From: Candidatus Saccharimonadota bacterium
GTDB lineage: Bacteria > Patescibacteriota > Saccharimonadia > Saccharimonadales > Saccharimonadaceae
Length of the DNA stretch: 64,000 nucleotides
Assembly: GCA_030530605.1 (NCBI GenBank)
Contig: JAUMUO010000004.1
Coordinates: 14,631-78,630 of the forward strand
Reading direction: 5' to 3'
The position numbers were made by a program, and so were the translations under genes. The notes under the pieces were generated by a model. It was given only the letters and a program-made list of their open reading frames with translations, was not told the DNA's origin and made no database searches. Below are positions 14,785 to 60,801 of the stretch, piece by piece. Every line of letters begins with the position of its first letter. Within the stretch, counting starts at the first letter, position 1.

Positions 14785-14868
14785 GCCCGAGTGGTGAAAT
14801 TGGTATACACGTATGCCTTAGGAGCATATGCCTCGTGCGTGCTGGTTCGAGTCCAGTCTCGGGCACCA
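14785..14868 (+). tRNA. tRNA-Leu (anticodon TAG)
   Basis: GCCCGAG acceptor stem, TATGC-CTTAGGA-GCATA anticodon arm, long variable arm, GGTTCGAGTCC T-arm, encoded CCA. Confidence 0.96.
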
Positions 14869-26299: not shown

Positions 26300-26605
26300 A
26301 TGGATATTACACGCGAGCAAATTGACCACCTCGCTGAGCTTTCCGATTTCAAATTAGAAGAAGCGGAAAAGGAATCTTTGAGAGGTGATCTTGAAAACAT
26401 TATTAAATATATTTCTGAACTAGACAGCCTGGATACCGAGGGTATTGAGCCGACGTATCAGGTTTTTGAAATGGAAAATGTCTGGCGCGAGGACGAAATT
26501 CTCCCCCAGGATGCCGACCGAGAAAAACTCCTAAAAACCGCCCCCGCCTTCCACGGCAAAGAGGGTGTGGAAGATTATCAAATTAAAGTTCCAAAGGTAT
26601 TATAG
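26300..26605 (+). CDS. gatC: Asp/Glu-tRNA amidotransferase subunit C
   Basis: HLAELS, REDE, VPKVL; precedes gatA. Confidence 0.92.
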   Translation: MDITREQIDHLAELSDFKLEEAEKESLRGDLENIIKYISELDSLDTEGIEPTYQVFEMENVWREDEILPQDADREKLLKTAPAFHGKEGVEDYQIKVPKVL

Positions 26606-26607
26606 TT

Positions 26608-27984
26608 ATGAAGATTGCTGATAAAACTACCTCTGCCGTCCAAATGGTCAAAGAGGCCCTAGAAAAAGCTAAGAAATACTCAGATTATCATATCTTTGTG
26701 AGCCTAAACGAAGAAACTGCCTTAAAAAAGGCTGAGGAGATTGACGAAAAAATCGCTCGTGGCGAAAAAGTTGGCCGTCTCGCCGGTGTGCCGTATGCGT
26801 GTAAAGATAACTTCTTGAGTGAGGAAGGGAACACTACTGCTTCTAGTAAAATTTTAGAGCCGTTCAAGGCCCCGATTACTGCCACCGCCGTTGAAAGGTT
26901 AGAGGACGAGGGTGCAATTATGATTGGCCGCGCTAACTTGGATAGCTTTGCTCACGGTTCTTCCACGGAGAACTCTTACTTCGGTCCAACTAGTAACTCT
27001 AAAGATAAAGAGCGCGTTGCTGGCGGTTCATCCGGCGGTTCGGCTGTGGCTGTCGCACTTGATATTGTAGAGTTTGCAACAGGCACCGACACCGGCGGTT
27101 CCATCCGCCAGCCAGCTTCGTTCAACGGTGTTTATGGCTTCAAACCGACCTATGGCACAATTTCTAGATATGGTGTCGTCGCGATGGCTTCCAGCCTGGA
27201 CTGTGTTGGTTTCTTCGCTAAAGACCCGGAAGATATTGATTTATTGATGGAAGTCTGTGCCGGCCAGGACCCGAAGGATATGACCACTCTCCCTGATTAC
27301 TATAATAAAGAAAATGAAATTTCTGCTAGTAAAATTGGTATCGTTAAGGGCTTCGGCCAAGGCCTTGCGCCCGAAATCAAGACGGCCTACGAATCTGAAA
27401 TCGAAAGCTTAAAGAGTAAGGGCTATGAAGTTATCGAGCTTTATATGCCAACTCTAAAATATGCTCTCCCGGTTTATTATATTCTTTGCCCCGCCGAAGT
27501 TTCCTCCAACCTTTCGCGCCACGACGGCGTTCGCTATGGATTCCGCGCCGAGGGTGTCGAAAGTCTAGAAGATGTCTATGGCAAATCTCGTTCCGAGGGC
27601 TTTATGCCAGAGAACAAGCGCCGTATTATGATTGGTAACTTCGTGCTATCAAGTGGCTTTTATGATGCTTATTATCTCAAGGCCGCCCAAGCTCGCACCC
27701 TGATTATCAAAGAATACGAGGAGTCCTTTAAGAAGTGTGATTTTATCCTTACCCCTGTTTCTCCGAACCCAGCCTTCAAACTTGGCGAAAAAACCGGCGA
27801 CCCACTCGCGATGTATATGGAAGATGTTCTCTCAGTTCCTTTGAACCTCGCCGGCCTTCCGGGCTTGGCTATTCCGGTTGGAAAAACTAAAGACGGCCTC
27901 GACCTCGGTCTTCAAATCGTCGGTCCGAGAAGAAGCGATAAATCTTTATTAGCATTTGCTAGCAAAATTAAGGAGGAAAAATGA
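26608..27984 (+). CDS. gatA: Asp/Glu-tRNA amidotransferase subunit A
   Basis: GGSSGGSA, GTDTGGSIRQPA amidase signature. Confidence 0.97.
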   Translation: MKIADKTTSAVQMVKEALEKAKKYSDYHIFVSLNEETALKKAEEIDEKIARGEKVGRLAGVPYACKDNFLSEEGNTTASSKILEPFKAPITATAVERLEDEGAIMIGRANLDSFAHGSSTENSYFGPTSNSKDKERVAGGSSGGSAVAVALDIVEFATGTDTGGSIRQPASFNGVYGFKPTYGTISRYGVVAMASSLDCVGFFAKDPEDIDLLMEVCAGQDPKDMTTLPDYYNKENEISASKIGIVKGFGQGLAPEIKTAYESEIESLKSKGYEVIELYMPTLKYALPVYYILCPAEVSSNLSRHDGVRYGFRAEGVESLEDVYGKSRSEGFMPENKRRIMIGNFVLSSGFYDAYYLKAAQARTLIIKEYEESFKKCDFILTPVSPNPAFKLGEKTGDPLAMYMEDVLSVPLNLAGLPGLAIPVGKTKDGLDLGLQIVGPRRSDKSLLAFASKIKEEK

Positions 27985-28400
27985 ACGGTACGCTCGTAGC
28001 CCTCTTAATCGCTATCTTAATTGTAGGGATTTTGGCCTTTGTCGCTATCACTCTCACTCAAAATCGCAAGCACGGCTTTAATCGCGAAGATTACCAGGCG
28101 GAGTTTCTCTCTATCCAGACCAGTCTCAAAAAGGAATCTCCTGATTCCGCCAGCATGGTAATCGTTAAGGCGGATAAATTGTTAGACCAGGCTTTAATTG
28201 AAATCGGCCTTTCCGGCAAGACTATGGGCGAGCGTCTAAAGAAACTTCACGGTCGCCTCTCTGATGAGAACGGCGTCTGGGCCGCCCACAAGATGCGCAA
28301 CCGTATCGCCCACGAAACTAATTACGCCGCTTCCTACGAAGATGCCAAATACGCCCTCTCTGCCTATAAAACCGCATTAAAAGATTTAGGAGCCATATGA
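27981..28400 (+). CDS. Membrane-anchored protein with HEPN-like RxxxxH motif
   Basis: N-terminal TM; ADKLLDQAL..G..G.TMGERLK; RNRIAH at 28296-28313; ATGA overlaps with both gatA and gatB. Confidence 0.7.
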   Translation: MNGTLVALLIAILIVGILAFVAITLTQNRKHGFNREDYQAEFLSIQTSLKKESPDSASMVIVKADKLLDQALIEIGLSGKTMGERLKKLHGRLSDENGVWAAHKMRNRIAHETNYAASYEDAKYALSAYKTALKDLGAI

Positions 28401-29884
28401 AATACGAAATTACTATTGGCATTGAATGTCACGTCCAGCTAAAAACTAAAACCAAGCTCTTCTCCGAGGTTGATAATGATGCCCGAGAAAAAGAGCCGAA
28501 CTCCTGCGTCTCCCCGGTTGACTACGCGCTTCCTGGTGTGCTCCCGCGCCTCAATAAAGAGGCGGTTAGTCTCGCCGTCCGCGCCGGCTATGCTCTGAAT
28601 TCCGAAATTAATCTCTATTCCCGCTTCGATCGCAAACACTACTATTATCCAGATTTACCGAAAGGCTACCAGATTTCCCAGTTCTACCACCCGATTATCG
28701 GTGCCGGTTTTATTGAGCTACCAAACGGTACTAAGGTTCGCATTGAGCACGCTCATATGGAAGAAGATGCCGGCAAGCTTACCCACTTTAGCAATTATTC
28801 ACTAGTAGATTTGAACCGTGCTGGCACCCCGTTAATTGAAATTGTTTCTATGCCAGACATCCACTCTGCCACCGACGCCCGCGATTATTGTAAGGAACTC
28901 TGGCGAGCTATGACTTACGCCGGTGTCACCTATGGCGACCTTTATAATGGCAATATGCGTTTTGATGTCAACATCTCGCTCGCGCCAGAGGGAGCCAAGG
29001 AGCTTGGCCGTCGCGCCGAAATCAAGAACTTGAACTCCTTTAGAAGCGTTGAGCGCGCCGTGGAATATGAATATGAGCGCCAAAGTAAGATTTTAGACGC
29101 AGGCGAGCGAGTAAAGCAGGAAACTCGCGGGTGGAACGATGCCACCGGCAAGACCACTTCCCAGCGCTCTAAAGAGGAGGCCCAGGATTATCGCTATATG
29201 CCTGAGCCGGACATCCCACCGATTCGCCTAACCCCTGAATTTGTCAAGGAGGAACAAGCAAAAGTCGGCCTGCTCCCGCGTGATTACCGCAAGATGTTTA
29301 AGGGTATCATCCAAGACGATATTTTAGAAGTGCTATTAGATTATCAACCGCTTATGGACTGTTTATGGCAATGTGCTGGCGGCTCTTTCGAAGGGCCTAA
29401 GACTCGGCCGAGCGGCCCGGAGCGGCCCGAGAAAGAGTTGCCAGACATTGCCAAGAGCCATCTGAAGCGTATTGCTAACTGGTTCTCTAGTGTACTCCTA
29501 GCCGAAGAAAAATCCTACGAGATGCTAAATGATTTGCCGTCGTCAAAACAGTTGGACGATCTTGCCGAGATGACCGAAAAACAGGAGCTATCGAGTACCG
29601 GCGCTAAAGAGGTCTTTACGAAGCTCTTTGATCCCCAGATGAAAAATAAGGGGGCTAAAGATATCGCTAAAGAATTAAATGTTCTCCAGGAAAATGACAC
29701 GGGCGCACTTGAGAAAATCGTGGACGAGGTTTTGAGTGACCCGGCCTGCGCCAAAGCCGTTGCGGATTATAAAGCCGGCCAAGAAAAAGTTCTAGGTTTC
29801 TTAGTTGGTCAAGTGATGAAAGCCTCTAAAGGCAAAGCCAACCCTGGCGCCGCCCAGCAAATTCTGAAAAATAAGTTGAAATAA
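28397..29884 (+). CDS. gatB: Asp/Glu-tRNA amidotransferase subunit B
   Basis: GIECHVQL, RKHYYYPDLPKGYQISQ, HMEEDAGK, YRYMPEPD, GFLVGQVMK. Confidence 0.97.
   Translation: MKYEITIGIECHVQLKTKTKLFSEVDNDAREKEPNSCVSPVDYALPGVLPRLNKEAVSLAVRAGYALNSEINLYSRFDRKHYYYPDLPKGYQISQFYHPIIGAGFIELPNGTKVRIEHAHMEEDAGKLTHFSNYSLVDLNRAGTPLIEIVSMPDIHSATDARDYCKELWRAMTYAGVTYGDLYNGNMRFDVNISLAPEGAKELGRRAEIKNLNSFRSVERAVEYEYERQSKILDAGERVKQETRGWNDATGKTTSQRSKEEAQDYRYMPEPDIPPIRLTPEFVKEEQAKVGLLPRDYRKMFKGIIQDDILEVLLDYQPLMDCLWQCAGGSFEGPKTRPSGPERPEKELPDIAKSHLKRIANWFSSVLLAEEKSYEMLNDLPSSKQLDDLAEMTEKQELSSTGAKEVFTKLFDPQMKNKGAKDIAKELNVLQENDTGALEKIVDEVLSDPACAKAVADYKAGQEKVLGFLVGQVMKASKGKANPGAAQQILKNKLK
29363..29453. repeat. Palindromic segment inside gatB coding sequence
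   Basis: 29366-74/29445-53 (9 bp) plus 29376-89/29431-44 (14 bp, two G-T); inner GGGCC/GGCCC. Confidence 0.75.
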
Positions 29885-29947
29885 TCAAAGTATCTATGAT
29901 ATAATAGAAGAAGTCTAAATATTTTTAATGTAAAAATTGAGGAGCCT

Positions 29948-32044
29948 ATGGCAGAAGTAAAAGATTTATCAAAATTTAGGAATATCGGTATCATCGCACA
30001 CATTGACGCCGGCAAAACTACCACCTCCGAGGCGATTCTTTATCGCACCGGTTTGAAACATAAAATTGACCTCGTGAAAGGCGACACCGGCGGTGCTACC
30101 ACCGACTGGATGGAACAGGAGAAGGAGCGTGGCATCACGATTACTTCTGCTGCTGTTACCGCCTACTGGAAGGGTCATCAAATTAACATCATTGACACCC
30201 CGGGCCACATCGACTTTACCGCCGAGGTAGAGCGCTCTCTCCGTGTTCTCGACGGTGCCGTGGTTGTCTTCGACGGTAAGATGGGTGTTGAGGCCCAGTC
30301 CGAGACCGTATGGCGCCAGGCCACTAAATATGGTGTCCCTCGCATCTGTTTCATCAACAAAATTAACCAGACAGGTGGCGATTTTTACAAATCTCTTGAT
30401 TCTATCCACAAGCGTCTTTCTAAGAACGCCGTGGCGATTCATCTCCCAATCGGCTTTGAGAAGGATATTTGCGGTGTTGTTGACCTCATTGATATGAAGG
30501 CCTACACCTACAAAGATTACGCCGATCACGAGCTCACCGTTGGTGAAATCCCGGCCGATATGGTTGAAAAGGCTAAGAACGCCCGTTCTATGCTCGTTGA
30601 AGAGGCTGTCCAGGCCGACGAAGCCCTTATGGAGAAGTTCTTCTCCGAGGGTGAAGATGCTATCACTGAAGAAGAATTGAAGAAGGCTTTAAGAAAGCGC
30701 GTGCTTGACGGCGACTTCTTCCTTGTCACCGGTGGTGATGGTCGTGGCGTGATTGTTGAGAAAGTTCTCGACCTCTGCGCTGACTATCTCCCGTCTCCGC
30801 TTGATCGTGACCAGGGTCAAATCATTGGCACCGACCCGAAGACCGGCGATGAAATCGTCCGAAAGGCTGCCGACAACGAGCCACTAACTGCTCTCGCCTT
30901 CAAGATTGCTACCGACCCGTTCGTAGGTAAGCTTATCTTTATCCGCGTCTATTCTGGCGTCCTCAAATCTGGCTCTTACATCTTAAACGCTACCACCGGC
31001 AACAAAGAGCGTGTCGGTCGTATCGTCCGTATGTTCGCTGACAAGCGCGAGGAAATCTCCGAGGTTACCGCTGGCGATATCGCCGCTGTGGTTGGTCTTA
31101 AAGATACTACCACCGGTACTACTCTCTGTGACCCAGCTCACCCGATTCACCTAGAATCTATCGAGTTCCCAGAACCGCCAGTATCTATCGCGGTTGAGCC
31201 AAAGACTAAGTCCGACCAGGAAAAAATGGCTCTCGGCCTCTCCAAACTCGCCGAGGAAGACCCAACTTTCCGCGTCCATACCGATGAAGAAACCGGCCAG
31301 ACTATTATCTCTGGTATGGGCGAACTTCACCTTGAAATCATTATTGACCGTCTCAACAAAGAGCACGGTGTTGAAGCTAACACCGGCGCCCCACAGGTTG
31401 CCTATCGTGAAACCATCCGCGGCACTGCCGAGGCTCAGGGTAAGCACATCAAGCAGTCTGGTGGTCGTGGTCAATATGGTGATGTTTGGATTAAGTTTGA
31501 ACCAAACGAACCGGGCAAAGGCTTTGAATTCATCGACCAGATTAAAGGCGGTGTCGTTCCTCAGGAATATAGAAAGCCTGTTCAGCAAGGTGTTGAAGAG
31601 ACCCTTAACGGCGGTGTTATTGCCGGCTACCCAGTTGTAGACGTCAAGGCCACCCTCTATGATGGCTCCTACCACGATGTCGACTCTAGTGAGCTCGCCT
31701 TCAAACTCGCTGGCTCTCTTGCTACCCGCGAAGGTATCGCCAAAGCTTCTCCGGTGCTCCTTGAGCCTGTGATGAAACTTGAGATTACTACCCCTGAAGA
31801 ATTCATGGGCGACGTCATTGGCGACATCAACTCTCGCCGTGGCCGCATTGATGAAATGGAAGACCTCGCCGGCGGTGCTAAGCTAATCAAGGCTTTCTGC
31901 CCGCTTGCTAACCTCTTCGGTTATACTAGCGACCTCCGCTCAATGTCGCAAGGTCGTGCTGCTTCCTCTATGGAGCTCTTCGCTTACGAGGAAGTCCCGC
32001 CTAACGTAGCTCAGGAAATCATCGCAGAGCGCGCTGCTAAATAA
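29948..32044 (+). CDS. fusA: Elongation factor G
   Basis: [37 protein letters not shown]. Confidence 0.98.
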
Positions 32045-32045
32045 T

Positions 32046-32082
32046 AGAAAAGACCCCGAAGCTTATCGCCTCGGGGCTTTCT
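32046..32082 (+). terminator. Intrinsic terminator after fusA
   Basis: AGAAAAGACCCCGA...TCGGGGCTTTCT. Confidence 0.7.
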
Positions 32083-32355
32083 AAAGAGTTTCTTTCTTTG
32101 GAGATTTTCGGGCTCTCCATACACCCATTTTTAATGTTTTTGGGCAAATGCTATAGGCATCACCTCCCTTTGAATAAATTTTCCCACGTCGTTGCAACAT
32201 GATCTTTCCCACCAATGAGCAACGAATCACGCGGACGTTATCATTGAGGTTAAGCGGCCCTCTGTAGAGATCCGTCAGCTGTTTTGCTTGTTCAATAATA
32301 CTTTATCATACATCATATTTACATCCTCCTTTAAAAGCTGTATGACAACCATTAT

Positions 32356-32384
32356 ATTATATCACAAAACTATTATTTTTTCAA
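32356..32384 (-). promoter_or_regulatory. Minus-strand sigma70-type promoter
   Basis: TTGAAA (32384-79) -17- TATAAT (32361-56) with TGA extension. Confidence 0.6.
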
Positions 32385-32419: not shown

Positions 32420-32448
32420 TTGACATTTTATGAATGGTAGTCTATAAT
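32420..32448 (+). promoter_or_regulatory. Consensus sigma70 promoter of the giant gene
   Basis: TTGACA (32420-25) -17- TATAAT (32443-48). Confidence 0.8.
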
Positions 32449-32598
32449 CGTCTAGATACCTTTTTTTATGCTGGAATAAAATAGCAAAAAGGGGTCGTAG
32501 TTTAACATGATAAGATAAGTTAGTTATAAGCCTAAGGAGGTGAAAAAGAGAAGGCTTAAGATTGTAACTCGTTGATTGTTTCAGAAGTGGAGGACGAT

Positions 32599-35500
32599 AT
32601 GAAGAAAATGAATCGAACTTTGCAGAAATACCTAGCAGTTATTCTGTCAGTAATGGTGGCAGTTTGTTCAACGCCGACTGTGACTTACGCACAGTTGGCA
32701 GAGACTGATACTGTTACCATCGCATTCAATACCGGTGAAGATGCCGGTTACGTTACGACGCCCGACGGCTATGATTACGACGGGGAAGGTGCCCCGGGAA
32801 TTTACTCAAAGAGTTTCACCGAAACAAGCGAAGGCGAAACGGTTACGCTACTTGATGCCCCTGACGATATTCCGCTTGGCAAAGTATTTGTCAAATGGGA
32901 ATCAGAGGATGGTGCAGATTGCGAACCGGGCGACGTTATGGCGCTCAGTACCTTGGATGTTGATGATGGTGACACTTACACCTTCACTGCAGTCTACGCT
33001 GATATTTACAGCATAGAATACGATGTGAACGGCGGTAATGACCCCGCGACAGCAAACCCGACTTCTTGGAATGTCACAGACGGTGATATCCTGCTCAATA
33101 ACCCCAGCTATACCGACGATATTTATACGTTTAATGGCTGGTGGCTTGCTGACGACACCGAGTTTGAAGAGGGACAAGAGATTACCAGCGCAATCACTAC
33201 CTTAAATAGCACTCTTTTCGATGCTATCTCCGGCAGTTCGATTAAGCTGGTAGCTGATTGGTACCCGACTGATTTTACCGTTGCCCTTTATGGATTAAAC
33301 GGTGTAAGCTCGGATTCAATTAGTGCCTTAGAGAACCTTGGTTTCGACATGGATGACGAAGATGCTCCGACAACCGCAACGGCATCGTTGACCGTAGAAG
33401 ACGCTATCACTATCCCGGCCCTTGAAAAAGAGGGCTATCGCTTTGTTAAGTGGGATGATGGCAATGATTCTACAGATGACGGTACTACTATTGAATTAGC
33501 CGCAGGAGACATCCGCAGTGGTCTAGACTTCACGGCTACTTTCGAACAGGAACACACGTTGACCCTTTCGGGGTTAGCAAACATTGACGACGGCTCAGTT
33601 GCTGCTCTGGAAGGACTTGGCTTTACCGTCGGCAGTAGCACCGCTACAAAGGTGTTCACCGCTAGCGATACAGCTTTCGATCTCCCGAATGTTGAGTCGG
33701 ATAGTTATGAGTTCTTTGGCTGGTACACCGACGACCCTACTTCAGCAAGTAAGGATGTTGAGTTTGACCCCGGCGTTGATACGGACACGACCTATACGGC
33801 CAGGTTCGCAAACTCCTATAGTGTTACCTTTATGGACGGCACTACGGAGCTTGATACGCTTGGATTCATGTATCAGACGGACGAAACTTCTATCAGATTG
33901 CCCGCATTGCCGGATAAGGATTACTATTCTGGCGAAGGTTGGGTAATTGTTGGCGACGAGACTGAGACTGTCTATACGTCAGATGCAGATTTAGATCTCG
34001 AAACCATCGGCATTGAGGACGAAGATGATTATACCAACTTAGTCTTTGATGCGAGTTATACTGCAACACCTTTTACTATCACTCTGACTGGCTTAAGTGG
34101 CGTAAGCGAAAATTCAATCGCTGAATTAGAGGATATCGGCTTCACTATGGATGATGAGGACGCTCCGACAAGCGCTACTGTTACTAAGACTGTAGAGGAT
34201 GCTCTTACTATCCCGGCAATCGTAAAGGATGGCTACCGCTTTATTAAGTGGGACGACTCCGATAGCGGAACTGTGGATGGAAGAGCTGTAGATTTTGAAG
34301 TAGGCGAGATTACTGATAACTTCGAATTTGCTGCTACCTTTGAGCAGGAGTACACCTTGACCCTTAACGGGGTAGCTGGTATTACCGCTGGCTCAGTTGC
34401 AGATCTGGAAGAAAAAGGCTTCACCGTTAGCGGAAATACCGCTGCTTTGGTATTCATCGACGACGATGAAGAATTTGTTATTCCTAACGTAGCTAAGGAA
34501 GGTTATGATTTCTTTGGCTGGTACGCTGGTGATGATCCTACATCTGCGGCTTTGGATTTAACTTTTGATCCTAGTACTGCAGCAGATGCAAGCTACACCG
34601 CAAGCCTTATAAGGTCTTACACCGTTACCTTCATGGACGGCATGACCGAGCTCACGTCTCTTGGCTTCACGTATTTAACAGGGGCAGATTCAATCAACCT
34701 GCCGGCACTCGCAGACAAAGATGGTTATACCAGCGATGGTTGGGTGCTTCAGGGCGACGAGACTGCTACCGAAAGAGAAGCAGGGGCAACTTTAAGTCTT
34801 GCAGACATTGGTATCGAGGATGAGGAAGACGAGACCGACCTGGTATTCGTCGCTAAATATTCAACTATTCCTTATACCATCACTCTCTCTGGTCTAGACA
34901 ATGCGGATAGCGATTCTATTACCGCTCTGGAAGCCGTTGGCTTCACTCTGAGCGATAACAACGTAGAAGCAACCGCAGTTAAGACCGTTGAAGATGCTGT
35001 TACTATCCCGGCCATGAGTGGAACAGGTTTCCGCTTCCTTGGCTGGCAGAAAGATGGCACGGGCACTGACTTCTTAGACGAAGTTGTGCTTGAAGAAGGC
35101 GATATCTTAAGCGACTTAAATTATACAGCTGTACTTAAACAGGAATACACCCTTAGCCTTACTAGGTTAGGCGGAATTACTGACAGCACAGTTGAGGCGC
35201 TTGAGGCCGACGGCTTCACCATTAGTAATGGCACCGCTACAAAGAAGTTTATCAACACAGATTCCGTTGTTGTGCTCCCGACAGTTGCTAAGGCCAACTA
35301 TGATTTCCTTGGTTGGTACGCATCTGGACAGAGCGAGACGACAGCAAGTACAAATGTTACATTTGACCCTAGCGAAGAACAGAATGGTAGGTATGTGGCA
35401 AGGTTTGTGAGATCCTACACCGTTACTTTCATGGACGGTACCACAGAACTTACAGATCTCGGCTTTACCTATCTGACTGGCGCAGAGTCAATTAATCTTC

Positions 35501-38500
35501 CGGCAGTTCCCGGCAAGACGGGTTATACTAATCTTGGCTGGTCCTTAGTAGATGGCAGTAACATCTACGAACCCGGCACTACTCTGGAGCTTTCGAATAT
35601 CGGCATCTCCAGCGCAGAGGATGAGCAAAACCTTGTCTTCGTTGCGGAGTACGAAACCATACCCTACACCATCACCCTTACCGGGTTAACGGGTGTAAGC
35701 GAGAATTCTATCGATGCGCTTGAAGACATTGGCTTCACCGTTGAAGATGGTACCGCTACTATCACCAAGACTATTGAGGATAGTCTTACTATTCCTGAAA
35801 TCAGCAAAGATGGCTTCCGCTTCATGAAGTGGGATGACAGCGACGCTGAAACTACGGATGGCAAGACTGTCGAATTAGCAGTAGGAGATATCGACGATGA
35901 TCTTAGCTATGCGGCTGTCTTTGAGCAGGAGTACACCTTGATCCTGGCTGGGTTAGAGGGTATCACTTCAGCCTCAGTTGCAGCTTTGGAAGACAAGTTT
36001 ACCGTTAACGACGATGGGACAGCCACGCTGATCTTTGTCGATGATGACGAAGCTTTTAATCTTCCGGCAGTAGCCAAGACCGACTATGATTTCCTTGGTT
36101 GGTACACTGGCGATGATCCTACCACTGCAACTTTAACTGTTAACTTCAATCCTAGCACCGCAGCAGACGCGACTTACACGGCAAGGTTCGTGAGGTCTTA
36201 CACCGTTACTTTCATGGACGGCACTACAGAGCTCGCTGATCTTGGCTTTACGTATCTGACGGGTGCTACGTCAATCACCATACCGGCAATTCCAGACAAG
36301 CTTGGTTACACTTCGGGCGAAGGCTGGTACCTGCAAGGTGACGAAACGGCAACACTTTATACTGCTGGTACTTTAACACTTGCGACCATCGGTATAGAGG
36401 ACGCTGACGACGAGACCAACTTGATCTTTGTCGCAGATGAGTATACTATCAACAACAACACTGTCACCCTCCTCGGGTTGGATGACATCAGTACAGCATC
36501 TGTTACCGCTCTTGAGTCCGCTGGATTCACCCTGAGCGAGAACAAAGCTACAGTCACCAAGACCGTTGAGGATAGCCTTACTATCCCGGCCATTTCTAAG
36601 CTTCACAAAGTATTTGATGGCTGGCAGAAGGGCACTGACGAACCGACCGCCACAGTCACACTGGCAGTTGGCGAAATCACAGGAAACTTAAGTTATACGG
36701 CTACGTTCTCTAGCGCAAAGACCATCACAGTTAGTTTCGACCTTGACGGCGGCGCCTTCCAGGCAGCTGACATAGAGGGTTGGGATGACTTTGGTTATGT
36801 TGTAGGAACGAACGAAGCTTTGGCAGCTTATGTCGACGACAATCTGGCTACTATCAACAACATTCCGGCACCAATTAAGGCAGACAATGTCTTTACAGGC
36901 TGGACCGTAAACGGTGGCACAGATAAGGTAATGAGTTACACCTTGCCCGCTCCTAATAACCAGGCAGTTGCACTCGTAGCTACTTGGATCGCAGGCGAAG
37001 AGGGCGAGACCATTATTCAGACAGAAGGTAACGCTGCTGGAAAGATCGATAACAGCTCTGTTAATGATATCAAGGATATTCTTGATGATAACGTTGGCAC
37101 TGGCGAAACTTCAGTAACAAAACTCTTCATCGAAGAGGACTTGACTGATACTCACGCTGGTACGGCCATCGAAGACAAGCTGGAAGAAGCTTTCGGCGGT
37201 ACAACTGCAAATATCACTAAGACTTACGTTGATATTGATATCACGCAGTATATCACTTCTGTTTCAAACAACAGCATTGCTAGTGAAATCCACGACCTCG
37301 GACGCGTTGTAGACATTATCTACACACCGACAAATGGCGTGGCTAATCTGAAGGCAGTAGTTCGCGAGCATGACGGTAACCCCAAGACCTACACAAGGTT
37401 TAAGGAACTTGCAACCGCACCGACCGGCGAGCTTGTAGATGGAACCTATTTTATTGACGACCCTGTCGTACATATTTACACCAGGTTCTTCTCAACCTAC
37501 GCTCTTGGTTATGCAACCGGAGTATACATGGTAAGCTTTGACGCTAACGGCGGTAACGAGACCTATGACCCTGTTTACACTGATCAGCTTGGCACATTGC
37601 CGACACCTACAAGGTCAGGCTATTGGAGCTTCCTGAAGTGGACCTATCCTGATGGAAGCGCGGCCGCAACTGGCGACACAATCACTCAAGATACTACGCT
37701 TACTGCTCAGTGGAAGGATACAACACCTCCCGGACCTGGGCCTGGACCTGGACCGAGTTCTTATACCGTCACCTTTGATTCAAATGGTGGTAAACCGGTT
37801 AGCTCGATCACGGTTACAGACGGTAAGTTGCCTGCTCTTCCGGAAACTACGAAAGAGAACAACACCTTCGACGGTTGGTTCTATGCAAATGGAACTAAGG
37901 CAGCAGTTGGTGATACAATCACAAGCGATGTCACTCTTACCGCTAGATGGACACAGAGTGGCACGTTCACTGTTTACTTTGATACTCAAGGTGGTACTGC
38001 AGTAGATCCTATTACTGTAACAGATGGCAAGCTTCCGACTCTCCCGACTACAACTAAGGAAGGTAACGCTTTCAACGGTTGGCTCTATGAGAACGGAAGC
38101 AAAGCAGTAGCTGGCGACGTAATTACTGGCAATGTTACCTTAACCGCAAGCTGGACACCTGGAGTAACGAATTACACTATCACCTTCGATGCTAACGGCG
38201 GTAGTGCTGTAGCTCCTATGACTGTTTCAGACAACAAACTCCCGAAACTGCCTGACAGTACGAGGGAGAAGTACACTCTTGACGGCTGGTTCTACGCAGA
38301 TGGTACCAAGGCAGCAGCTGGTGATGTCATCAAGGCAGACACCACCTTGACTGCAAGATGGACCAAGGTTAAAGAACCCGCTCCGACAGAGGTCGTCCCG
38401 ACCAAGAATGGTGTAGTAGTAGCAAAGAACAACGATGGTAAAAACACCGTTACACTGCTCGATGGTACTAACTACGGCAAGAAAGCTTCTATCAACACTA

Positions 38501-39903
38501 TCAAGGGAACGGACAAGAAGACCTACAAGATTACCAGAATCTACGATGAAGCCTTTAAGGGCAATACTACTATCACTAACGTATCCATCGGCTCTAACGT
38601 ACTGTTTATCGGCGACAGCGCTTTTGACGGCTGTACTAACCTGAAATCGGTATCGTTTGGTAGCAAGGTGAAAGAAATTGGTGATAGAGCCTTTGCTGGT
38701 ACAGCAATCACTAAGGCTAATGTCTCTGGTAAAGTAGAAACTATCGGCAGCTATGCTTTTGCTGGCTGTACCTACCTGAAATCTGCGTCTATCGCAGGTA
38801 AAGTCAACTCAATTGGCGAATCAGCTTTCGACGGCTGTACTGCTCTTGCTACAGTGAAGATCGGAAATACGGTGAAGACCGTTAGCGCTAGAGCGTTTGA
38901 CGGCTGTACAGGTCTGAAGACGTTAAATATCGGATCTGGAGTAGAGGTTATCGGAGTTGGCGCCTTTAGCGGATGTAGTAATTTGGCTACGCTTACTATT
39001 GGTATGTCGAATATCCCTGATGGGCTGTTTAGCGGATATGCTAACCTTAAGAAAGTAACTATTGGCAAAACTGTTAAGTCTATCGGCGAATCTGCATTTG
39101 CTAGCACTGGAATTACCAGAATCAGCTTATCTGGTAAGTTAGAGTCTATCGGCGATTATGCATTCTATAATTGCCAGAGTCTTACTTCATCAAGTATGAG
39201 CAAGTATGTTAAATCTGTTGGCGCTTGCGCATTCCAGAATTGTTCGAGCATGAAGACCGCTTCTCTCGGCTCTAATGTTGAGACTGTTGGCGATTATGCT
39301 TACGCTGGTTGTGCTAGCCTGAAGTCATTCAAGGTTGGCAAGACAGTTAAGACTATGGGTATTGAAGTACTCGACGGCTGTACCAACCTGGCCACTCTTA
39401 CCATAGACATGGCAAATATCCCTGATAATTTACTCAAGGGTAGCACCAGTCTTAAGAAGGTGAGTATTGGCTCCAACGCCAGAACGGTTGGCGACAGCGC
39501 ATTTAACGGCTGTACTAACCTCAAGACATTGACTCTGGGCGGCAAGTTAGTTGGCATCGGCGACTACGCCTTTGCTGGTACCGCTATCACCAAGGCTACT
39601 ACAAGTAAGACAGTTACAACTATCGGCAACTACGCCTTTGCAAACTGTGCTAACCTGAAGTCGGCTACGATCGGCGCAGGAGTGACCTACATTGGTGCTG
39701 GCGCTTACTCAGGCGACGCTAACCTTGCTACTCTTACAGTTAATTCAAGCAACTTAACTACTACAGAGGCTGTAGGCAATGATTTCATCAGCGGAATCAA
39801 AGCTAACGCGACTGTGAAGATACCTAAGAAGGTATTCGACCAGACCAAGAGCGTCTTTGAGGCCAAAGGTGGTGCCGGCAGTCAGATCAAGTACAAGAAG
39901 TGA
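32599..39903 (+). CDS. Giant secreted surface protein: InlB B-repeat (Flg_new)-like domains + C-terminal BspA-type LRRs
   Basis: GGAGG SD before ATG 32599, signal peptide; many Y(T/S)VTF..GG..LP.P.K.GY.F.GW modules; PPGPGPGPGPS linker; C-terminal IG..AF.GC..LK.V.IG repeats (LRR_5-like). Confidence 0.88.
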   Translation: MKKMNRTLQKYLAVILSVMVAVCSTPTVTYAQLAETDTVTIAFNTGEDAGYVTTPDGYDYDGEGAPGIYSKSFTETSEGETVTLLDAPDDIPLGKVFVKWESEDGADCEPGDVMALSTLDVDDGDTYTFTAVYADIYSIEYDVNGGNDPATANPTSWNVTDGDILLNNPSYTDDIYTFNGWWLADDTEFEEGQEITSAITTLNSTLFDAISGSSIKLVADWYPTDFTVALYGLNGVSSDSISALENLGFDMDDEDAPTTATASLTVEDAITIPALEKEGYRFVKWDDGNDSTDDGTTIELAAGDIRSGLDFTATFEQEHTLTLSGLANIDDGSVAALEGLGFTVGSSTATKVFTASDTAFDLPNVESDSYEFFGWYTDDPTSASKDVEFDPGVDTDTTYTARFANSYSVTFMDGTTELDTLGFMYQTDETSIRLPALPDKDYYSGEGWVIVGDETETVYTSDADLDLETIGIEDEDDYTNLVFDASYTATPFTITLTGLSGVSENSIAELEDIGFTMDDEDAPTSATVTKTVEDALTIPAIVKDGYRFIKWDDSDSGTVDGRAVDFEVGEITDNFEFAATFEQEYTLTLNGVAGITAGSVADLEEKGFTVSGNTAALVFIDDDEEFVIPNVAKEGYDFFGWYAGDDPTSAALDLTFDPSTAADASYTASLIRSYTVTFMDGMTELTSLGFTYLTGADSINLPALADKDGYTSDGWVLQGDETATEREAGATLSLADIGIEDEEDETDLVFVAKYSTIPYTITLSGLDNADSDSITALEAVGFTLSDNNVEATAVKTVEDAVTIPAMSGTGFRFLGWQKDGTGTDFLDEVVLEEGDILSDLNYTAVLKQEYTLSLTRLGGITDSTVEALEADGFTISNGTATKKFINTDSVVVLPTVAKANYDFLGWYASGQSETTASTNVTFDPSEEQNGRYVARFVRSYTVTFMDGTTELTDLGFTYLTGAESINLPAVPGKTGYTNLGWSLVDGSNIYEPGTTLELSNIGISSAEDEQNLVFVAEYETIPYTITLTGLTGVSENSIDALEDIGFTVEDGTATITKTIEDSLTIPEISKDGFRFMKWDDSDAETTDGKTVELAVGDIDDDLSYAAVFEQEYTLILAGLEGITSASVAALEDKFTVNDDGTATLIFVDDDEAFNLPAVAKTDYDFLGWYTGDDPTTATLTVNFNPSTAADATYTARFVRSYTVTFMDGTTELADLGFTYLTGATSITIPAIPDKLGYTSGEGWYLQGDETATLYTAGTLTLATIGIEDADDETNLIFVADEYTINNNTVTLLGLDDISTASVTALESAGFTLSENKATVTKTVEDSLTIPAISKLHKVFDGWQKGTDEPTATVTLAVGEITGNLSYTATFSSAKTITVSFDLDGGAFQAADIEGWDDFGYVVGTNEALAAYVDDNLATINNIPAPIKADNVFTGWTVNGGTDKVMSYTLPAPNNQAVALVATWIAGEEGETIIQTEGNAAGKIDNSSVNDIKDILDDNVGTGETSVTKLFIEEDLTDTHAGTAIEDKLEEAFGGTTANITKTYVDIDITQYITSVSNNSIASEIHDLGRVVDIIYTPTNGVANLKAVVREHDGNPKTYTRFKELATAPTGELVDGTYFIDDPVVHIYTRFFSTYALGYATGVYMVSFDANGGNETYDPVYTDQLGTLPTPTRSGYWSFLKWTYPDGSAAATGDTITQDTTLTAQWKDTTPPGPGPGPGPSSYTVTFDSNGGKPVSSITVTDGKLPALPETTKENNTFDGWFYANGTKAAVGDTITSDVTLTARWTQSGTFTVYFDTQGGTAVDPITVTDGKLPTLPTTTKEGNAFNGWLYENGSKAVAGDVITGNVTLTASWTPGVTNYTITFDANGGSAVAPMTVSDNKLPKLPDSTREKYTLDGWFYADGTKAAAGDVIKADTTLTARWTKVKEPAPTEVVPTKNGVVVAKNNDGKNTVTLLDGTNYGKKASINTIKGTDKKTYKITRIYDEAFKGNTTITNVSIGSNVLFIGDSAFDGCTNLKSVSFGSKVKEIGDRAFAGTAITKANVSGKVETIGSYAFAGCTYLKSASIAGKVNSIGESAFDGCTALATVKIGNTVKTVSARAFDGCTGLKTLNIGSGVEVIGVGAFSGCSNLATLTIGMSNIPDGLFSGYANLKKVTIGKTVKSIGESAFASTGITRISLSGKLESIGDYAFYNCQSLTSSSMSKYVKSVGACAFQNCSSMKTASLGSNVETVGDYAYAGCASLKSFKVGKTVKTMGIEVLDGCTNLATLTIDMANIPDNLLKGSTSLKKVSIGSNARTVGDSAFNGCTNLKTLTLGGKLVGIGDYAFAGTAITKATTSKTVTTIGNYAFANCANLKSATIGAGVTYIGAGAYSGDANLATLTVNSSNLTTTEAVGNDFISGIKANATVKIPKKVFDQTKSVFEAKGGAGSQIKYKK
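33271..36715 (+). repeat. Internal tandem repeat: about four ~795-bp three-domain units plus a partial fifth
   Basis: Units begin near 33271, 34070, 34870, 35661, 36457 (ITL.GL...SI.ALE..GF / QEYTL.L.GL / SYTVTFMDGTTEL); boundaries approximate. Confidence 0.8.
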
Positions 39904-39927
39904 TTTTAATTAACTTATCTTATCGGG

Positions 39928-39958
39928 AGGGGTCCTTGCTCTTTAAGGGCCCCTTTTT
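39928..39958 (+). terminator. Intrinsic terminator after giant gene
   Basis: AGGGGTCCTT...AAGGGCCCCT followed by T-run. Confidence 0.75.
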
Positions 39959-40081
39959 CATGGTAAAAATTAAGCGATTTTCCTCTTTACAACCCCCCAA
40001 AAATCATGTAAAATAGTAGTAAGTGTCTGGAGATGGTTTTTATTAGTGCTACCAGACAATTAATAAAAGGAGAATAAAAGA

Positions 40082-41266
40082 ATGGCAAATTTTGACCGTT
40101 CCAAGCCACACATTAACGTTGGCACCATGGGTCACGTCGACCATGGTAAAACCACTCTTACCGCTGCTATTACTGCGGTTCTAGCAAAAAAGCTTCCTAG
40201 CGAAGTTAACAAGCCGGTCGCTTACGACCAAATCGACAACGCCCCTGAAGAGAAGGCTCGCGGTATTACTATCGCTACTTCCCACCAGGAATACGAGTCT
40301 GAAAAGCGTCACTATGCCCACGTCGATATGCCGGGCCACGCTGACTACATTAAGAACATGATTACCGGTGCTGCCCAGATCGATGGCGCTATCCTCGTCG
40401 TCGCTGCGAACGATGGTCCGCTTCCGCAGACCCGTGAGCACGTACTTCTCGCCCACCAGGTGAACGTTCCAAAAATCATCGTCTTCTTGAACAAGATGGA
40501 TCTCGCTGACCCAGAGCTCGTCGAGCTCGTTGAGATGGATGTCCGCGAACTCTTGAACAAGTACGGCTTCGATGGCGACAACGCCCCAATCATCAAGGGT
40601 TCCGCTACCAAAGCTCTCGAAGGTGATGCTGAAAACGAACAGGCTATTATGGACCTCGTTAAGGCTATGGACGAATACTTTGATGTTCCAGAGCACGATC
40701 TTGACAAACCATTCCTAATGCCAATTGAAGACGTCTTCTCTATCAAAGGCCGTGGTACTGTTGCTACTGGTCGTATCGAGCAGGGTGTCGTCAAATTGAA
40801 CGACGAAGTTGAAATCGTCGGTCTTAAGGACACTCAGAAGTCCGTCGTTACCGGTATCGAGGCCTTCCACAAGACTCTTGATCAGGGTCAGGCTGGCGAT
40901 AACGCAGGTCTTCTTCTCCGCGGTATCGAGCGCGATCAAATCGAGCGTGGTCAGGTTATCGCTGCCCCAGGTAGCATTACCCCACACACCGAGTTTGAAG
41001 GTGAAGTTTACATCTTGAAGAAAGAGGAAGGCGGCCGCCACACCCCGTTCTCCAAGGGTTACAAGCCACAGTTCTACTTCAGAACTACCGACGTTACCGG
41101 CGAAGTTGAGCTTCCAGCTGACAAGGAAATCGTTATGCCTGGTGACACCGTCACTTTCAAGGTTAAACTCCTTGCCCCAATCGCTATGAACAACAACGAC
41201 CGCTTTGCTATCCGTGAAGGTGGCAAGACCGTTGGTTCTGGTGTTATCACCAAGATTGTAAAATAG
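40082..41266 (+). CDS. tuf: Elongation factor Tu
   Basis: [29 protein letters not shown]. Confidence 0.99.
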
Positions 41267-41387: not shown

Positions 41388-41711
41388 ATGGCAGAAGCCA
41401 AAAAAGAAGGTTTAAAAATCCGTATCCGCCTCAAGGCCTATGACCACCGCGTCATCGACCAGAGCGCTAAGCAAATTGTTGACACCGCCATCAGAACTGG
41501 TGCCAATGTCAGCGGCCCAGTGCCTCTTCCGACCAAAAGAAGCACCTTTACCGTAGTCAAGAGCCCACACGTCTATAAGACCGGTGGTGAGGCTTTCGAG
41601 ATGAAGGTTCACAAGCGCCTGATTGACATCACCAATGCCACCCCAAAGACGATCGATTCACTTCAGAATCTCTCGCTCCCAGCTGGCGTTGATGCTGAAA
41701 TCCGTATGTAG
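41388..41711 (+). CDS. rpsJ: 30S ribosomal protein S10
   Basis: [33 protein letters not shown]. Confidence 0.98.
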
Positions 41712-41739
41712 AAAAAAGCCCCCATTTAGGGGGCTTTTT
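41712..41739 (+). terminator. Intrinsic terminator after rpsJ
   Basis: AAAAAAGCCCCC-ATTTA-GGGGGCTTTTT. Confidence 0.85.
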
Positions 41740-41952
41740 GTTGCCTTTGTGCAAAATGAAAAGCGCCAGTCCTAAGACTGGCGCAGTTCTTCAGCCGGGT
41801 CACTTCCGGTTCTTCAAACCAGTCGCTATCCTTCCAATTCGGGTAAAGCCCATCGAGCTTAGCTCTGAACTGGTGGTTTATAATTGAAGCTATACTGCAT
41901 TGTCCCTAAAATGTCAAGGTGACAAACCCGTAGGATTTGATATAATAGATGT

Positions 41953-43245
41953 ATGCGTATTACCGCAAAATTTAAGAAGAAATTTTACTTCGTAGCTGCA
42001 GGGTATTTTCGCTTTTTTGCAAATCACGCTCTGAAGCGTTGGCACCCCCGTATTATCGCTATCACCGGCTCTGTCGGTAAAACTACGATGCTACACCTAG
42101 TAGAGACCCAGCTAAAAGACGAAGCGCACTATTCCCACGATGCGAACTCGGCCTTTGGTATCGCTTTTGACCTCGTGGATCTCCGAGGCGTCACCGGTTC
42201 TAAAGCCCGCTGGTTTTACCTGATTTTTGCCGTCCCCGTTAAATCGCTTTTTGTAAAGCATAAAGAGAAGTTTTATATTGTTGAGATTGATGGTGAGCGC
42301 CCCCACGAAACCGAATTCTTGGCTACCTGGCTAAAGCCCGAGATTACCCTTTGGGTCTCTCTCGGCCGCTCTCACGCCGTCCAATACGAGCAGCAGATTA
42401 GAGATGGTATCTTTGAGAACCTCGATAAAGCCATCACCCACGAGTTTGCCACTCTCCCGGAGAACACCAGAAAAGTCATCTATATCGACGGTGATGTTCC
42501 TCTAATGGTCAAAGCCACCGAAAAGATTCTCAAAAAAGGCAAAACAAAGGCCGATGTCATCAGATATTACAAAAAAGACCTCAAAAAATACGATGTCACC
42601 CCTGATAGCACCACCTTTGAATTAAAAAGCGGCCTAAAATTCAAGTTCGCTCAACCGATGCCAAAAGACATGGCTATCCAGCTTTTAATGCTAGAAGGCC
42701 TAATGGACTATCTTAAAATTAAGATTAACACCAACCTCACCAACATGGTGGTTGCCCCCGGTAGAAGCAGCTTCTTCGAGGGTAAAAACGGCCTTAAAAT
42801 TATTGATAGCTCCTATAATGCCCACCTTATCTCCGTCCAATCTATTCTTGAAATGAGCAAGGAGATGCCAGAGAAGAAAAAGTGGTACATCATCGGTGAT
42901 ATGGTAGAACAGGGCTTTATTGAGGGTGATGAGCACGCTAAGCTAGCGGATTTAATTGCTGACGCCAAGCCTACCAAGGTTCTCCTGGTTGGCCGCCGCA
43001 CCAAGAAATACACCTACCCAAGATTAAAGGAACTAAAAGTAGACGCAGAGACTTTCTCAGATGTCAGGCCGGCCCTGAAGTATATTGAACAAAATACCAA
43101 AGGCGACGAGGTTCTGATTTTCAAAGGTTCGCAATATCTAGAGTGGATTATTGAGAAATTATTAAAAAATCCCGCGGATGCCGAGAAATTGCCCCGTCGG
43201 GAGAAAGCAGCCACCAAGCGTCGCGAAAAAAGAGGGTTAAATTAA
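41953..43245 (+). CDS. Mur ligase family protein (MurF-like)
   Basis: IIAITGSVGKTT, IIDSSYNA, IGDMVEQG, FKGSQ. Confidence 0.85.
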   Translation: MRITAKFKKKFYFVAAGYFRFFANHALKRWHPRIIAITGSVGKTTMLHLVETQLKDEAHYSHDANSAFGIAFDLVDLRGVTGSKARWFYLIFAVPVKSLFVKHKEKFYIVEIDGERPHETEFLATWLKPEITLWVSLGRSHAVQYEQQIRDGIFENLDKAITHEFATLPENTRKVIYIDGDVPLMVKATEKILKKGKTKADVIRYYKKDLKKYDVTPDSTTFELKSGLKFKFAQPMPKDMAIQLLMLEGLMDYLKIKINTNLTNMVVAPGRSSFFEGKNGLKIIDSSYNAHLISVQSILEMSKEMPEKKKWYIIGDMVEQGFIEGDEHAKLADLIADAKPTKVLLVGRRTKKYTYPRLKELKVDAETFSDVRPALKYIEQNTKGDEVLIFKGSQYLEWIIEKLLKNPADAEKLPRREKAATKRREKRGLN

Positions 43246-60035: not shown

Positions 60036-60440
60036 ATGTCAACTATTGATCAGCAATTCGTAGAATACATCGTCAAAACCCTCGTCAACAATCCTGATAA
60101 AGTTGAAGTTGAACGCACTATTGATGAGAAGGGCGTCTTGCTTGCTCTCACCGTCGCTCCGGAAGATGTCGGCCGTGTAATCGGCAAGCGCGGTGTCACC
60201 GCCCAGTCCATCCGCACCCTTCTTCGCGCCCTCGGCACCAAGAACGATGCTCGTTACAATCTTAAAATCGTCAATTCTGATGAAGGCGCCCCGGCTCGCC
60301 CGGCCGAATCTGCCCAAGTGGAAGAGGCTCCGGTCGTCGAAGAAACTGAAGAAATCACCGAAGTCGAGGAAGAGCCATCTTCCGACCTCGCCGAACGCAC
60401 TCGTTCTGAATTAGCAGACCTAGACGATCTAGATATTTAG
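60036..60440 (+). CDS. KH-domain RNA-binding protein (KhpA-like)
   Basis: DVGRVIGKRG..AQSIRTLL; follows rpsP. Confidence 0.92.
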   Translation: MSTIDQQFVEYIVKTLVNNPDKVEVERTIDEKGVLLALTVAPEDVGRVIGKRGVTAQSIRTLLRALGTKNDARYNLKIVNSDEGAPARPAESAQVEEAPVVEETEEITEVEEEPSSDLAERTRSELADLDDLDI

Positions 60441-60494
60441 AAAAAAGTCCAAAAAAGTACTTGCGCAATTTATCGCGCTCGTGTATAATTAAAT

Positions 60495-60598
60495 TAGTTC
60501 TAAATAAGCTTTAAAACTGCGAGAAATAAAGCTAGAACAACAATCACAAGTTGAGAGTTTATCTATGCTTAACAAGCCGCCCGAGAGGCGGTTTGTTG
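60495..60598 (+). ncRNA. Candidate ~100-nt small RNA or attenuated leader
   Basis: TTGCGC-17-TATAAT (60461-60489), hairpin 60497-60538, terminator 60571-60597; no credible ORF. Confidence 0.35.
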
Positions 60599-60647
60599 GT
60601 TCTCGGCCAAAAATAACAAAAATATCAAAAAATCTTCAAAATCCCCC

Positions 60648-60801
60648 TTGTAAAATTTTACAACCTGCGCTAAAATAATTATTAAGAAGTAGTGTGTCCT
60701 ATTTTTGGGAGTACAGAGAATTAGCGAGGCTCTGTATGAAATAGAGACAGTATTCTTCGGCGCTGAAAGAATATCAAATACACTAATAAAAGAGGTATTA
60801 A
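60648..60801 (+). promoter_or_regulatory. rpoB promoter with palindromic -35 region and structured leader
   Basis: TTGTAA-17-TAAAAT; TTGTAAAATTTTACAA is a perfect palindrome; stems 60690-97/60778-85, 60712-18/60730-36, 60751-57/60767-73. Confidence 0.55.

Follow-up and report, generated by a model that had tools for sequence, protein, structure and literature searches.

A giant adhesin-like gene with mosaic alleles at the variable fusA-tuf site of a Candidatus Saccharimonadota genome, a candidate exchangeable surface-protein cassette

The window analysed here is a stretch of 64,000 nt within contig 8 (C8) of a Candidatus Saccharimonadota genome (G000; 678 kb in 10 contigs), and the gene in question lies between fusA and tuf, where it encodes an adhesin-like protein of 2,434 aa. 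We consider it probable, at roughly 60%, that this giant gene is a fast-diversifying, horizontally exchanged surface adhesin cassette belonging to a gene family of Saccharibacteria. Throughout the text, G000 denotes the window's own genome, other numbers beginning with G, P and L denote the other genomes, proteins and loci compared, and positions without a contig are those of the window. An earlier note on this DNA, made from the sequence alone, had described a protein of ~2,430 aa at this place, and both the length and the flanking genes, the latter through NCBIfam, were confirmed.

Mosaic alleles, relatives and the fusA-tuf site

The strongest indication of exchange came from the comparison with L007, the closest relative, whose tuf is 96% identical to that of G000 at the nucleotide level, with a third-position identity of 0.88. 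The last ~900 nt of the giant gene and the spacer behind it are 88-95% identical between the two, while to the left of ~38950-39000 the identity falls to 60-85%, and this left part also contains indels, which affect one Flg_new domain and about three leucine-rich repeat (LRR) units. From the 3′ end of the gene through the spacer to tuf, G000 and L007 are colinear; windows of 100 nt are 88-99% identical here, except for one in the spacer with 71%. Where both alleles encode the same amino acid, third codon positions have an identity of 0.84 beyond aa 2130 and of 0.50 before it (Fisher p = 2e-26). The central domain, which is single-copy, has a value of 0.39, so that mis-pairing of repeats is not the cause of the divergence. 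Saturated synonymous sites are not something that selection on the protein can produce. This step, observed in one close pair, G000 and L007, is most simply read as a recombination in which most of the gene was replaced.

The gene trees likewise disagree with one another. In the tree of the central domain, G020 groups with the genome that encodes P0004 and L007 groups with L048, with G000 placed with neither G020 nor L007, unlike the relationships obtained from EF-G and tuf. The fusA product of G000 is 98% identical to that of G020 at the amino acid level and 89-94% identical to the other full-length matches in the genus. The EF-G tree places G000 and G020 as sisters and pairs the P0004 genome with G022, which has no giant gene. 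The number of stalk units also differs, from two to four per allele. Both the synonymous step and the discordant gene tree are thus present, and as far as sequences can tell they point to a recombination-driven variable surface-protein locus. The metagenome-assembled genome (MAG) G020 contains the central region of the giant gene in two forms with 78% nucleotide identity (L009 and L015, on contigs C101 and C100, each of ~1.5 kb), which could be paralogs or co-assembled strain alleles. Its LRR ends lie on two contigs (C78 and C8), and one contig of G020 has the giant gene in two frames or open reading frames (ORFs); the gene evidently breaks short-read assemblies.

The best matches of the protein are from Candidatus Saccharibacteria, at 50-63% identity. 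In the search with the whole length, these were P0004 (2,402 aa, 57% identity), P0005 (2,489 aa, 52%), P0003 (1,777 aa, 50%) and P0008 (1,413 aa, 62% over the shared part). Beyond these four specific relatives, the matches, which include hundreds of giant proteins with LRR_5 and Flg_new domains, cover the LRR block only, ~17% of the query at no more than 34% identity, and lie in giant proteins from Clostridia, Bacteroides and MAGs. With the N-terminal 1,661 aa as query, only the same four proteins were returned, followed by generic Flg_new matches at 22-24% identity (Methanomassiliicoccus, Kiritimatiellae and others) and one further match with 29% identity over 19% of the query. A pattern scan of GTDB genomes, whose reach is close relatives, gave only two already known Saccharibacteria MAGs. 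Among 25 sampled species of the genus, a true ortholog is present in two, the own genome included, the other being G020. LRR_5 domains are found in 31 of the 121 sampled species of the genus; the giant gene is the sole LRR_5 gene of G000, which has Flg_new in four other proteins. The gene family thus appears, so far, only in Saccharibacteria MAGs and metagenome contigs, and its matches offer no identifiable recent Firmicutes donor, though it is possible that the domain set had a foreign origin in ancient times.

The position between fusA and tuf recurs among the relatives, as the earlier note had suggested looking for. In two independent assemblies, the P0004 locus reads gatCAB, fusA, the giant gene, a 172-aa ORF and tuf. 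The gene of P0003 stands immediately before tuf, and in G020 fusA is followed by the giant gene up to the end of the contig. In the flanked contigs of L006, L007 and G020, the fusA or tuf flank is ~79-96% identical to the window in nucleotides. The 172-aa ORF (L005 17375-17893) belongs to no family and is missing in G000.

The site itself varies in content. The gap between fusA and tuf measures 110 bp to 2.3 kb elsewhere in the genus and up to 3.6 kb in the order, compared with 8,040 bp in G000, and unrelated ORFs fill the spacers of G022 and G003 (2.1-2.3 kb) and of G036 (3.6 kb); those in G022 matched no family. Other genes (ABC transporters, regulators and glycosyl-modifying enzymes) follow fusA in at least five species, and there tuf lies elsewhere. 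The spacer of G003 (L021, G003:C24:16057-18508) holds at 1403-2284 an ORF on the opposite strand for a 293-aa LRR_5 protein, apparently without a signal peptide, together with two small multi-pass membrane proteins; this LRR_5 ORF suggests that BspA-type LRR genes landed at the fusA-tuf site more than once. Within G000, the small broken ORF upstream of the giant gene (Table 1) is missing from the 274-nt spacers of G020 and of the P0004 genome, is present in a single copy, has no Pfam match and is probably the decaying remnant of an earlier cargo of the fusA-tuf site.

The composition of the giant gene is atypical, which agrees with what the earlier note had seen by eye, though only in part with the codons it had named. 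The share of GCA is well above the genome mean (0.37 against 0.14), whereas ACA (0.19 against 0.12) and GTA (0.30 against 0.19) rise mildly, and more of the signal is carried by CCA (0.03 against 0.33), AAG (0.72 against 0.37), AGA plus AGG (0.73 against 0.29) and CAG (0.82 against 0.51). Several synonymous choices sit in the extreme tails of the distribution of the genes of G000. In cross-validation, a codon model derived from either half of the gene outdid the genome model on the remaining half by +0.08 and +0.15 bits/codon, compared with -0.21 ± 0.076 for other genes, and the tetranucleotide distance of 2.08 (0.98 ± 0.20 for the genome) ranked first of 338 windows, which makes this the most deviant 7.3 kb of the genome. 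The whole-gene codon log-likelihood against the genome model and a principal component analysis of relative synonymous codon usage did not flag the gene. The first axis of codon usage in G000 (37% of the variance) separates genes of the plus and minus strands by C-ending and G-ending codons, and a strand asymmetry that dominates codon variation in this way can mask or mimic the signals of foreign genes.

The same odd signature was found in all five relatives, each compared with its own flanking genes, so that it either predates these lineages or travels with the gene. Codon usage of the giant gene correlates with its own genome at r = 0.69 and with two sampled genomes that host giant LRR genes, the carriers of the best-named or best-scoring matches outside Saccharibacteria, at r = 0.52-0.63. 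Giant LRR_5/Flg_new genes of two unrelated genomes (L063 10001-21217 and L064 4589-17200) are shifted towards AGC, AGA and CTT relative to their flanks, as is the giant gene of G000, and the compositional signal may thus be in part a property of the gene class. Some small ORFs for secreted or membrane proteins in G000 share the codon signature of the giant gene, three of them adjacent at C7:4107-7634 and the others at C4:11259-11861 and C2:22048-22710, with log-likelihood ratios between about 0 and +0.1, where the genome averages -0.21, and these may belong to the same exchanged accessory pool. Other strongly atypical tetranucleotide stretches of G000 are C2:1-9000 and C8:74826-78500 (~60200-63900 of the window), with distances of 1.5-1.9 against 0.98 ± 0.2.

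Architecture of the giant protein and its surroundings

The longest open frame spans 32572-39903 on the plus strand, and the coding sequence (CDS) was taken to start at the ATG at 32599, because GGAGG stands 5 nt before it and the N-terminus then matches the MKK... of the orthologs. The promoter, the Shine-Dalgarno sequence and the terminator of its own that the earlier note had read around the gene were all recovered, as shown in Table 1. No Rfam family matched in the leader or the spacers. The predicted signal peptide is unlikely to contain a lipobox, as Cys23 is not conserved among the orthologs.

The domains and charges of the protein are likewise as first described. In Pfam, the whole protein matches only LRR_5/BspA (PF13306; E = 1.4e-108, 358.4 bits against a cut-off of 27.7, four stretches), Flg_new (PF09479; E = 1.5e-75, 249.7 bits against a cut-off of 27, eight stretches) and LRR_8, which has no stretch of its own, and TIGR02543 scores 69.2 bits against a cut-off of 20.95. 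The very acidic stalk (aa 33-1374) has an isoelectric point (pI) of 4.05 and a net charge of -200, compared with a pI of 9.3 and a net charge of +21 for the LRR block and tail (aa 1926-2434), and the LRR block holds 12 of the 14 cysteines. The stalk is formed of four units of ~265 aa and a partial one, with the TFMDG motif at aa 409, 676, 942 and 1203, that is, at a spacing of 267, 266 and 261 aa. At the DNA level, the repeat families of the stalk have periods of 783-801 nt and identities of 60-87%; Tandem Repeats Finder called no tandem repeat, the period of ~795 nt being above its limit.

One stalk unit was modelled with AlphaFold2 from 11 copies, both paralogs and orthologs, and consists in the model of three small beta/alpha domains, with a predicted local distance difference test score (pLDDT) of 93.8 and a predicted template modelling score (pTM) of 0.77. 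With Foldseek, single domains of this model match the InlB B-repeat 2y5p (prob 0.98, TMt 0.67) and chains of ubiquitin and ISG15, with further matches to InlB 36-392 entries and to stalk domains of Gram-positive surface proteins. According to this model and its matches, the stalk domains, which are sub-threshold by sequence, adopt a beta-grasp, InlB B-repeat-like fold, so that the three-domain unit is supported and the whole stalk would be a string of ~20 beta-grasp domains.

The central region has no Pfam family, its AlphaFold2 model (seven sequences) is of low confidence, with a pLDDT of 41, and a profile search of the sequences in the PDB gave nothing below E = 0.18. Its core (aa 1463-1647) has only 78 homologs at E ≤ 1e-3 in a set of 1.84 billion representative proteins. 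Nine of the homologs were examined: Flg_new repeats follow directly after the matched core stretch in seven of them, and a variable C-terminal module (LRR_5, Big_2 or DUF5648) comes next, also in seven. The layout of the gene family thus looks like a stalk, a core, Flg_new repeats and an exchangeable head.

Table 1. Features of the fusA-tuf region and of the giant gene, with positions in the window.
Feature	Position	Strand	Basis or remark
fusA (EF-G), conserved left flank of the variable site	29948-32044	+	NCBIfam; TIGR00484, 1021 bits
Hairpin after fusA, probably a bidirectional terminator	32053-32077	.	10-pair stem reported on the minus strand
Broken small ORF, pieces of 25 aa and 49 aa in different frames, own AGGAGG	32081-32352	-	
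Promoter-like site TTGAAA-17-TATAAT with TG, divergent and directed towards the broken small ORF	32356-32384	-	11/12 match
Promoter-like site of the giant gene, TTGACA-17-TATAAT	32420-32448	+	12/12 match, top score in the region; leader ~150 nt
Shine-Dalgarno GGAGG, 5 nt upstream of the ATG	32589-32593	+	Read from the sequence
CDS of the giant protein	32599-39903	+	Mature protein ~254 kDa, pI ~4.05
Predicted Sec signal peptide, aa 1-31, cleavage ...TYA/Q	32599-32691	+	Judged by eye
N-terminal acidic region with one weak Flg_new-like domain (33007-33198)	32692-33272	+	Sub-threshold Flg_new match; charge profile
Tandem stalk array, four full TFMDG units (start aa 407, 674, 940, 1201) and a partial unit ahead	33273-36720	+	
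Single-copy central region, aa 1375-1642, best conserved across alleles	36721-37524	+	Alignments
Four canonical Flg_new / InlB B-repeat domains	37525-37710, 37762-37944, 37966-38148, 38173-38355	+	PF09479
PG linker TTPPGPGPGPGPSS, after the first canonical Flg_new	37720-37761 (aa 1708-1721)	+	
BspA-type LRR block (LRR_5), basic	38533-39753	+	PF13306 at 38533-38919, 39010-39390, 39451-39753
Approximate recombination breakpoint against L007	38950-39000	.	Step in nucleotide identity, 0.62-0.85 to the left and 0.88-0.95 to the right
Basic C-terminal tail, aa 2395-2434, pI 10, no transmembrane segment or sorting signal	39781-39900	+	
Terminator-like hairpin and T-run after the giant gene	39925-39960	+	Core stem 39938-39950; longer stem visible
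tuf (EF-Tu), conserved right flank	40082-41266	+	NCBIfam; own promoter-like site 39986-40014
rpsJ	41388-41711		NCBIfam

Around the gene, neither junction shows a GC step, and the GC content of the giant gene is the same as that of its flanks. The spacer contains no ORF of the size of an integrase or transposase and no flanking direct repeats, and the sole tRNA of the window is at 14785. In the usual order of the str and S10 operons, rpsL and rpsG precede fusA and rplC follows rpsJ. This order is not kept in the window (26300-32044 and 41388-43245), in which gatC, gatA, an ORF of 139 aa and gatB stand before fusA and a MurF-like ligase stands after rpsJ.

Alternative explanations and proposed role

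Several observations count against the reading of the giant gene as an exchanged surface adhesin cassette. The contig of L007 ends in the promoter region, where identity is patchy, so the left breakpoint cannot be placed. The EF-G tree is that of a single gene with several unresolved forks, which makes any history of loss against gain tentative. P0005 is encoded elsewhere, after leuS. Some of the compositional oddity may stem from a biased, repetitive protein or be intrinsic to the gene class. As for display on the cell, no LPXTG-like motif (LP.[TSA]G) occurs anywhere in the protein, though G000 encodes two sortases, no C-terminal hydrophobic stretch is visible, and Pfam gave no GW, LysM or SLH match; the earlier note had also reported the lack of LPXTG and of a C-terminal transmembrane segment. 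As no anchoring signal was found, the protein is possibly released rather than displayed. At the P0005 locus (L001 6716-7114 and L002 12728-15235), a 132-aa CdiA_C ORF precedes the gene by ~2.9 kb, leuS stands between the two, and a second Flg_new protein, of 835 aa, comes after the gene. CdiA_C is the C-terminal domain of contact-dependent toxins.

The earlier note had suggested an acquisition of the gene from a Firmicutes-like organism, and a recent transfer from such a donor, for example one of the rumen Clostridia, into the fusA-tuf site would fit the atypical codon and tetranucleotide usage, the promoter and terminator that the gene has of its own, its patchy presence within the genus and the abundance of giant LRR_5 and Flg_new proteins in Clostridia and Bacteroides MAGs. 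We hold this origin to be very unlikely, however, because the taxonomy of the best matches, a check suggested in the note, leads to Saccharibacteria orthologs, of which three share the locus, and matches from outside cover the LRR block only or are generic Flg_new domains. The orthologs also carry the same codon signature, the codon usage is not nearer to that of the two sampled donor-type genomes, and no integrase, tRNA or flanking direct repeat accompanies the gene. Orthologs of Saccharibacteria at the same locus, which the note had named as evidence against its own proposal, were thus largely found, but the mosaic alleles indicate that their inheritance was not simply vertical. A purely vertical descent within the subclade, in which the protein evolved very fast through diversifying selection and repeat turnover and the gene was lost repeatedly, but nothing passed between lineages, agrees with the same locus in four lineages, with the sister position of the two gene carriers G000 and G020 on the EF-G tree and with stalk repeats that are able to expand and contract in place. 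It appears quite unlikely, since in the same genome pair the 5′ 85% of the gene is near synonymous saturation while its 3′ end and tuf keep 84-88% identity at third positions, the tree of the central domain conflicts with the relationships of EF-G and tuf, and the P0004 genome groups with G022, whose fusA-tuf cargo is unrelated.

An artefact of assembly or binning, with a foreign contig joined between fusA and tuf, is hardly credible. Although the genome is a MAG of 10 contigs and the gene is its compositionally most deviant region, independent assemblies of relatives contain fusA with the gene, the gene with tuf, or all three on single contigs, and neither the colinearity of the 3′ end, spacer and tuf with L007 nor the even GC content at both junctions suggests a false join. 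Unlikely, but less so than purely vertical descent, is a real secreted protein that does not attach the cell to a host bacterium and acts instead as a released binder or decoy, or is aimed at an animal host, feed particles or phage. The lack of a detected cell-wall anchor would suit such a protein, BspA-type LRR proteins of other organisms bind animal proteins, and related proteins have Big_2 or DUF5648 in place of the LRR head, which would leave room for other classes of ligand. On the other side, displayed adhesins are usually built as a long stalk with a binding module at its end, and cultivated Saccharibacteria need several adhesins on their hosts (PMC10633639).

Under the preferred reading of an exchanged adhesin cassette, the gene encodes a secreted modular protein of ~254 kDa, in which a long acidic stalk of beta-grasp domains is followed by a conserved central domain and, as the probable binding head, a basic LRR block. 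The protein would stay on the cell surface, where the LRR head may bind a ligand on the host bacterium or on another gut surface. A role in host attachment is plausible, and the acidic and basic halves that the earlier note had pointed out, borne out by the charges given above, would allow the basic head to bind either the cell's own wall or that of the host. The alleles would be exchanged or replaced by homologous recombination, plausibly after natural transformation, with the homology supplied by the conserved flanks fusA and tuf and by the conserved 3′ LRR end. Through such exchange, very close relatives would come to have very different stalks and heads, a diversification that may reflect host specificity or range, or evasion. 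The literature lends indirect support: cultivated Saccharibacteria are naturally competent and integrate DNA through homology arms of ~1 kb, and multiple adhesins are essential for their epibiotic growth (PMC10633639). LRR proteins are also enriched in one oral TM7 clade and have been proposed to mediate adherence (PMC7739484). It is conceivable, though doubtful, that fusA-tuf serves as a dedicated swap site, at which competent cells, with two of the most highly conserved genes of the genome as homology arms, replace the whole adhesin cassette (stalk length and binding head) in one step and the allele sets which bacterial host can be attached.

LRR proteins were already known as putative adhesins of Saccharibacteria; the new findings are the location of such a gene at a variable fusA-tuf site and its mosaic alleles. 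To our knowledge, host recognition by Saccharibacteria is largely open, and the type IV pili and the few adhesins described so far were all found in oral isolates. The locus offers a concrete, highly variable candidate for attachment in uncultivated lineages, apparently of gut-type metagenomes, in which a giant surface gene may be exchangeable between close relatives while it is set among core genes of translation. It also calls for caution in inferring horizontal gene transfer, as the atypical codon usage follows a gene family inside the phylum and points to no foreign donor, and the central domain (aa ~1463-1647) is a small uncharacterised module that would be worth a structure.

Comparison with known systems

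The giant protein has LRR and B-repeat domains without LPXTG in common with InlB of Listeria, and its modelled stalk domains appear to share the beta-grasp fold of the B-repeat. In InlB, the LRR is N-terminal and of internalin type, has a cap and an IR domain, and is accompanied by a single B-repeat and by GW modules at the C-terminus, whereas the protein described here has a C-terminal LRR block of BspA type, ~20 B-repeat-like domains and no GW module in Pfam. A Listeria internalin was ruled out by the type and position of the LRR and by the lack of cap/IR, LPXTG or GW. The HupY/LrrG adhesin family (NF047961) gave a local LRR match of 91 bits against a cut-off of 1,250, and the protein is not a member.

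Rod-like stalks of Gram-positive adhesins, such as the SHIRT repeats of SGO_0707, the C-terminal domains of SpyCEP and YwfG, consist of tandem small beta domains and were among the top Foldseek matches, with low global TM-scores (0.2-0.3), so that the likeness is one of single domains. In both cases, tandem beta domains would project a binding module, and in the giant protein the number of repeats varies by allele. Those adhesins have a C-terminal sortase anchor and an N-terminal binding domain, while the giant protein has no anchor and a putative C-terminal head.

The LRR proteins of the oral TM7 clade T1 (Shaiber et al. 2020, PMC7739484) are, like the giant gene, accessory, clade-restricted and located in otherwise conserved loci. 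They are COG4886 proteins with 12-24 copies per genome, likened here by their description, while G000 has a single LRR_5 gene of 2,434 aa with a giant stalk, in a lineage that differs from T1 and comes apparently from gut-type metagenomes.

The same two domain families occur in BspA-type LRR_5 proteins, such as BspA of Tannerella forsythia, and in the giant LRR_5 and Flg_new proteins of gut Clostridia and Bacteroidota. The BspA/LRR_5 family has been linked to adhesion and co-aggregation. With these giant proteins only the LRR block aligns, as given above, and compared with the BspA class the LRR block is C-terminal and stands without a C-terminal domain of the type IX secretion system, LPXTG or S-layer module. 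On the basis of its domains, the protein would join the functionally uncharacterised class of giant LRR_5/Flg_new surface proteins, from which it is distinguished by an unannotated core domain and an acidic, lineage-specific stalk of triple beta-grasp units, both confined to a handful of Saccharibacteria-type proteins.

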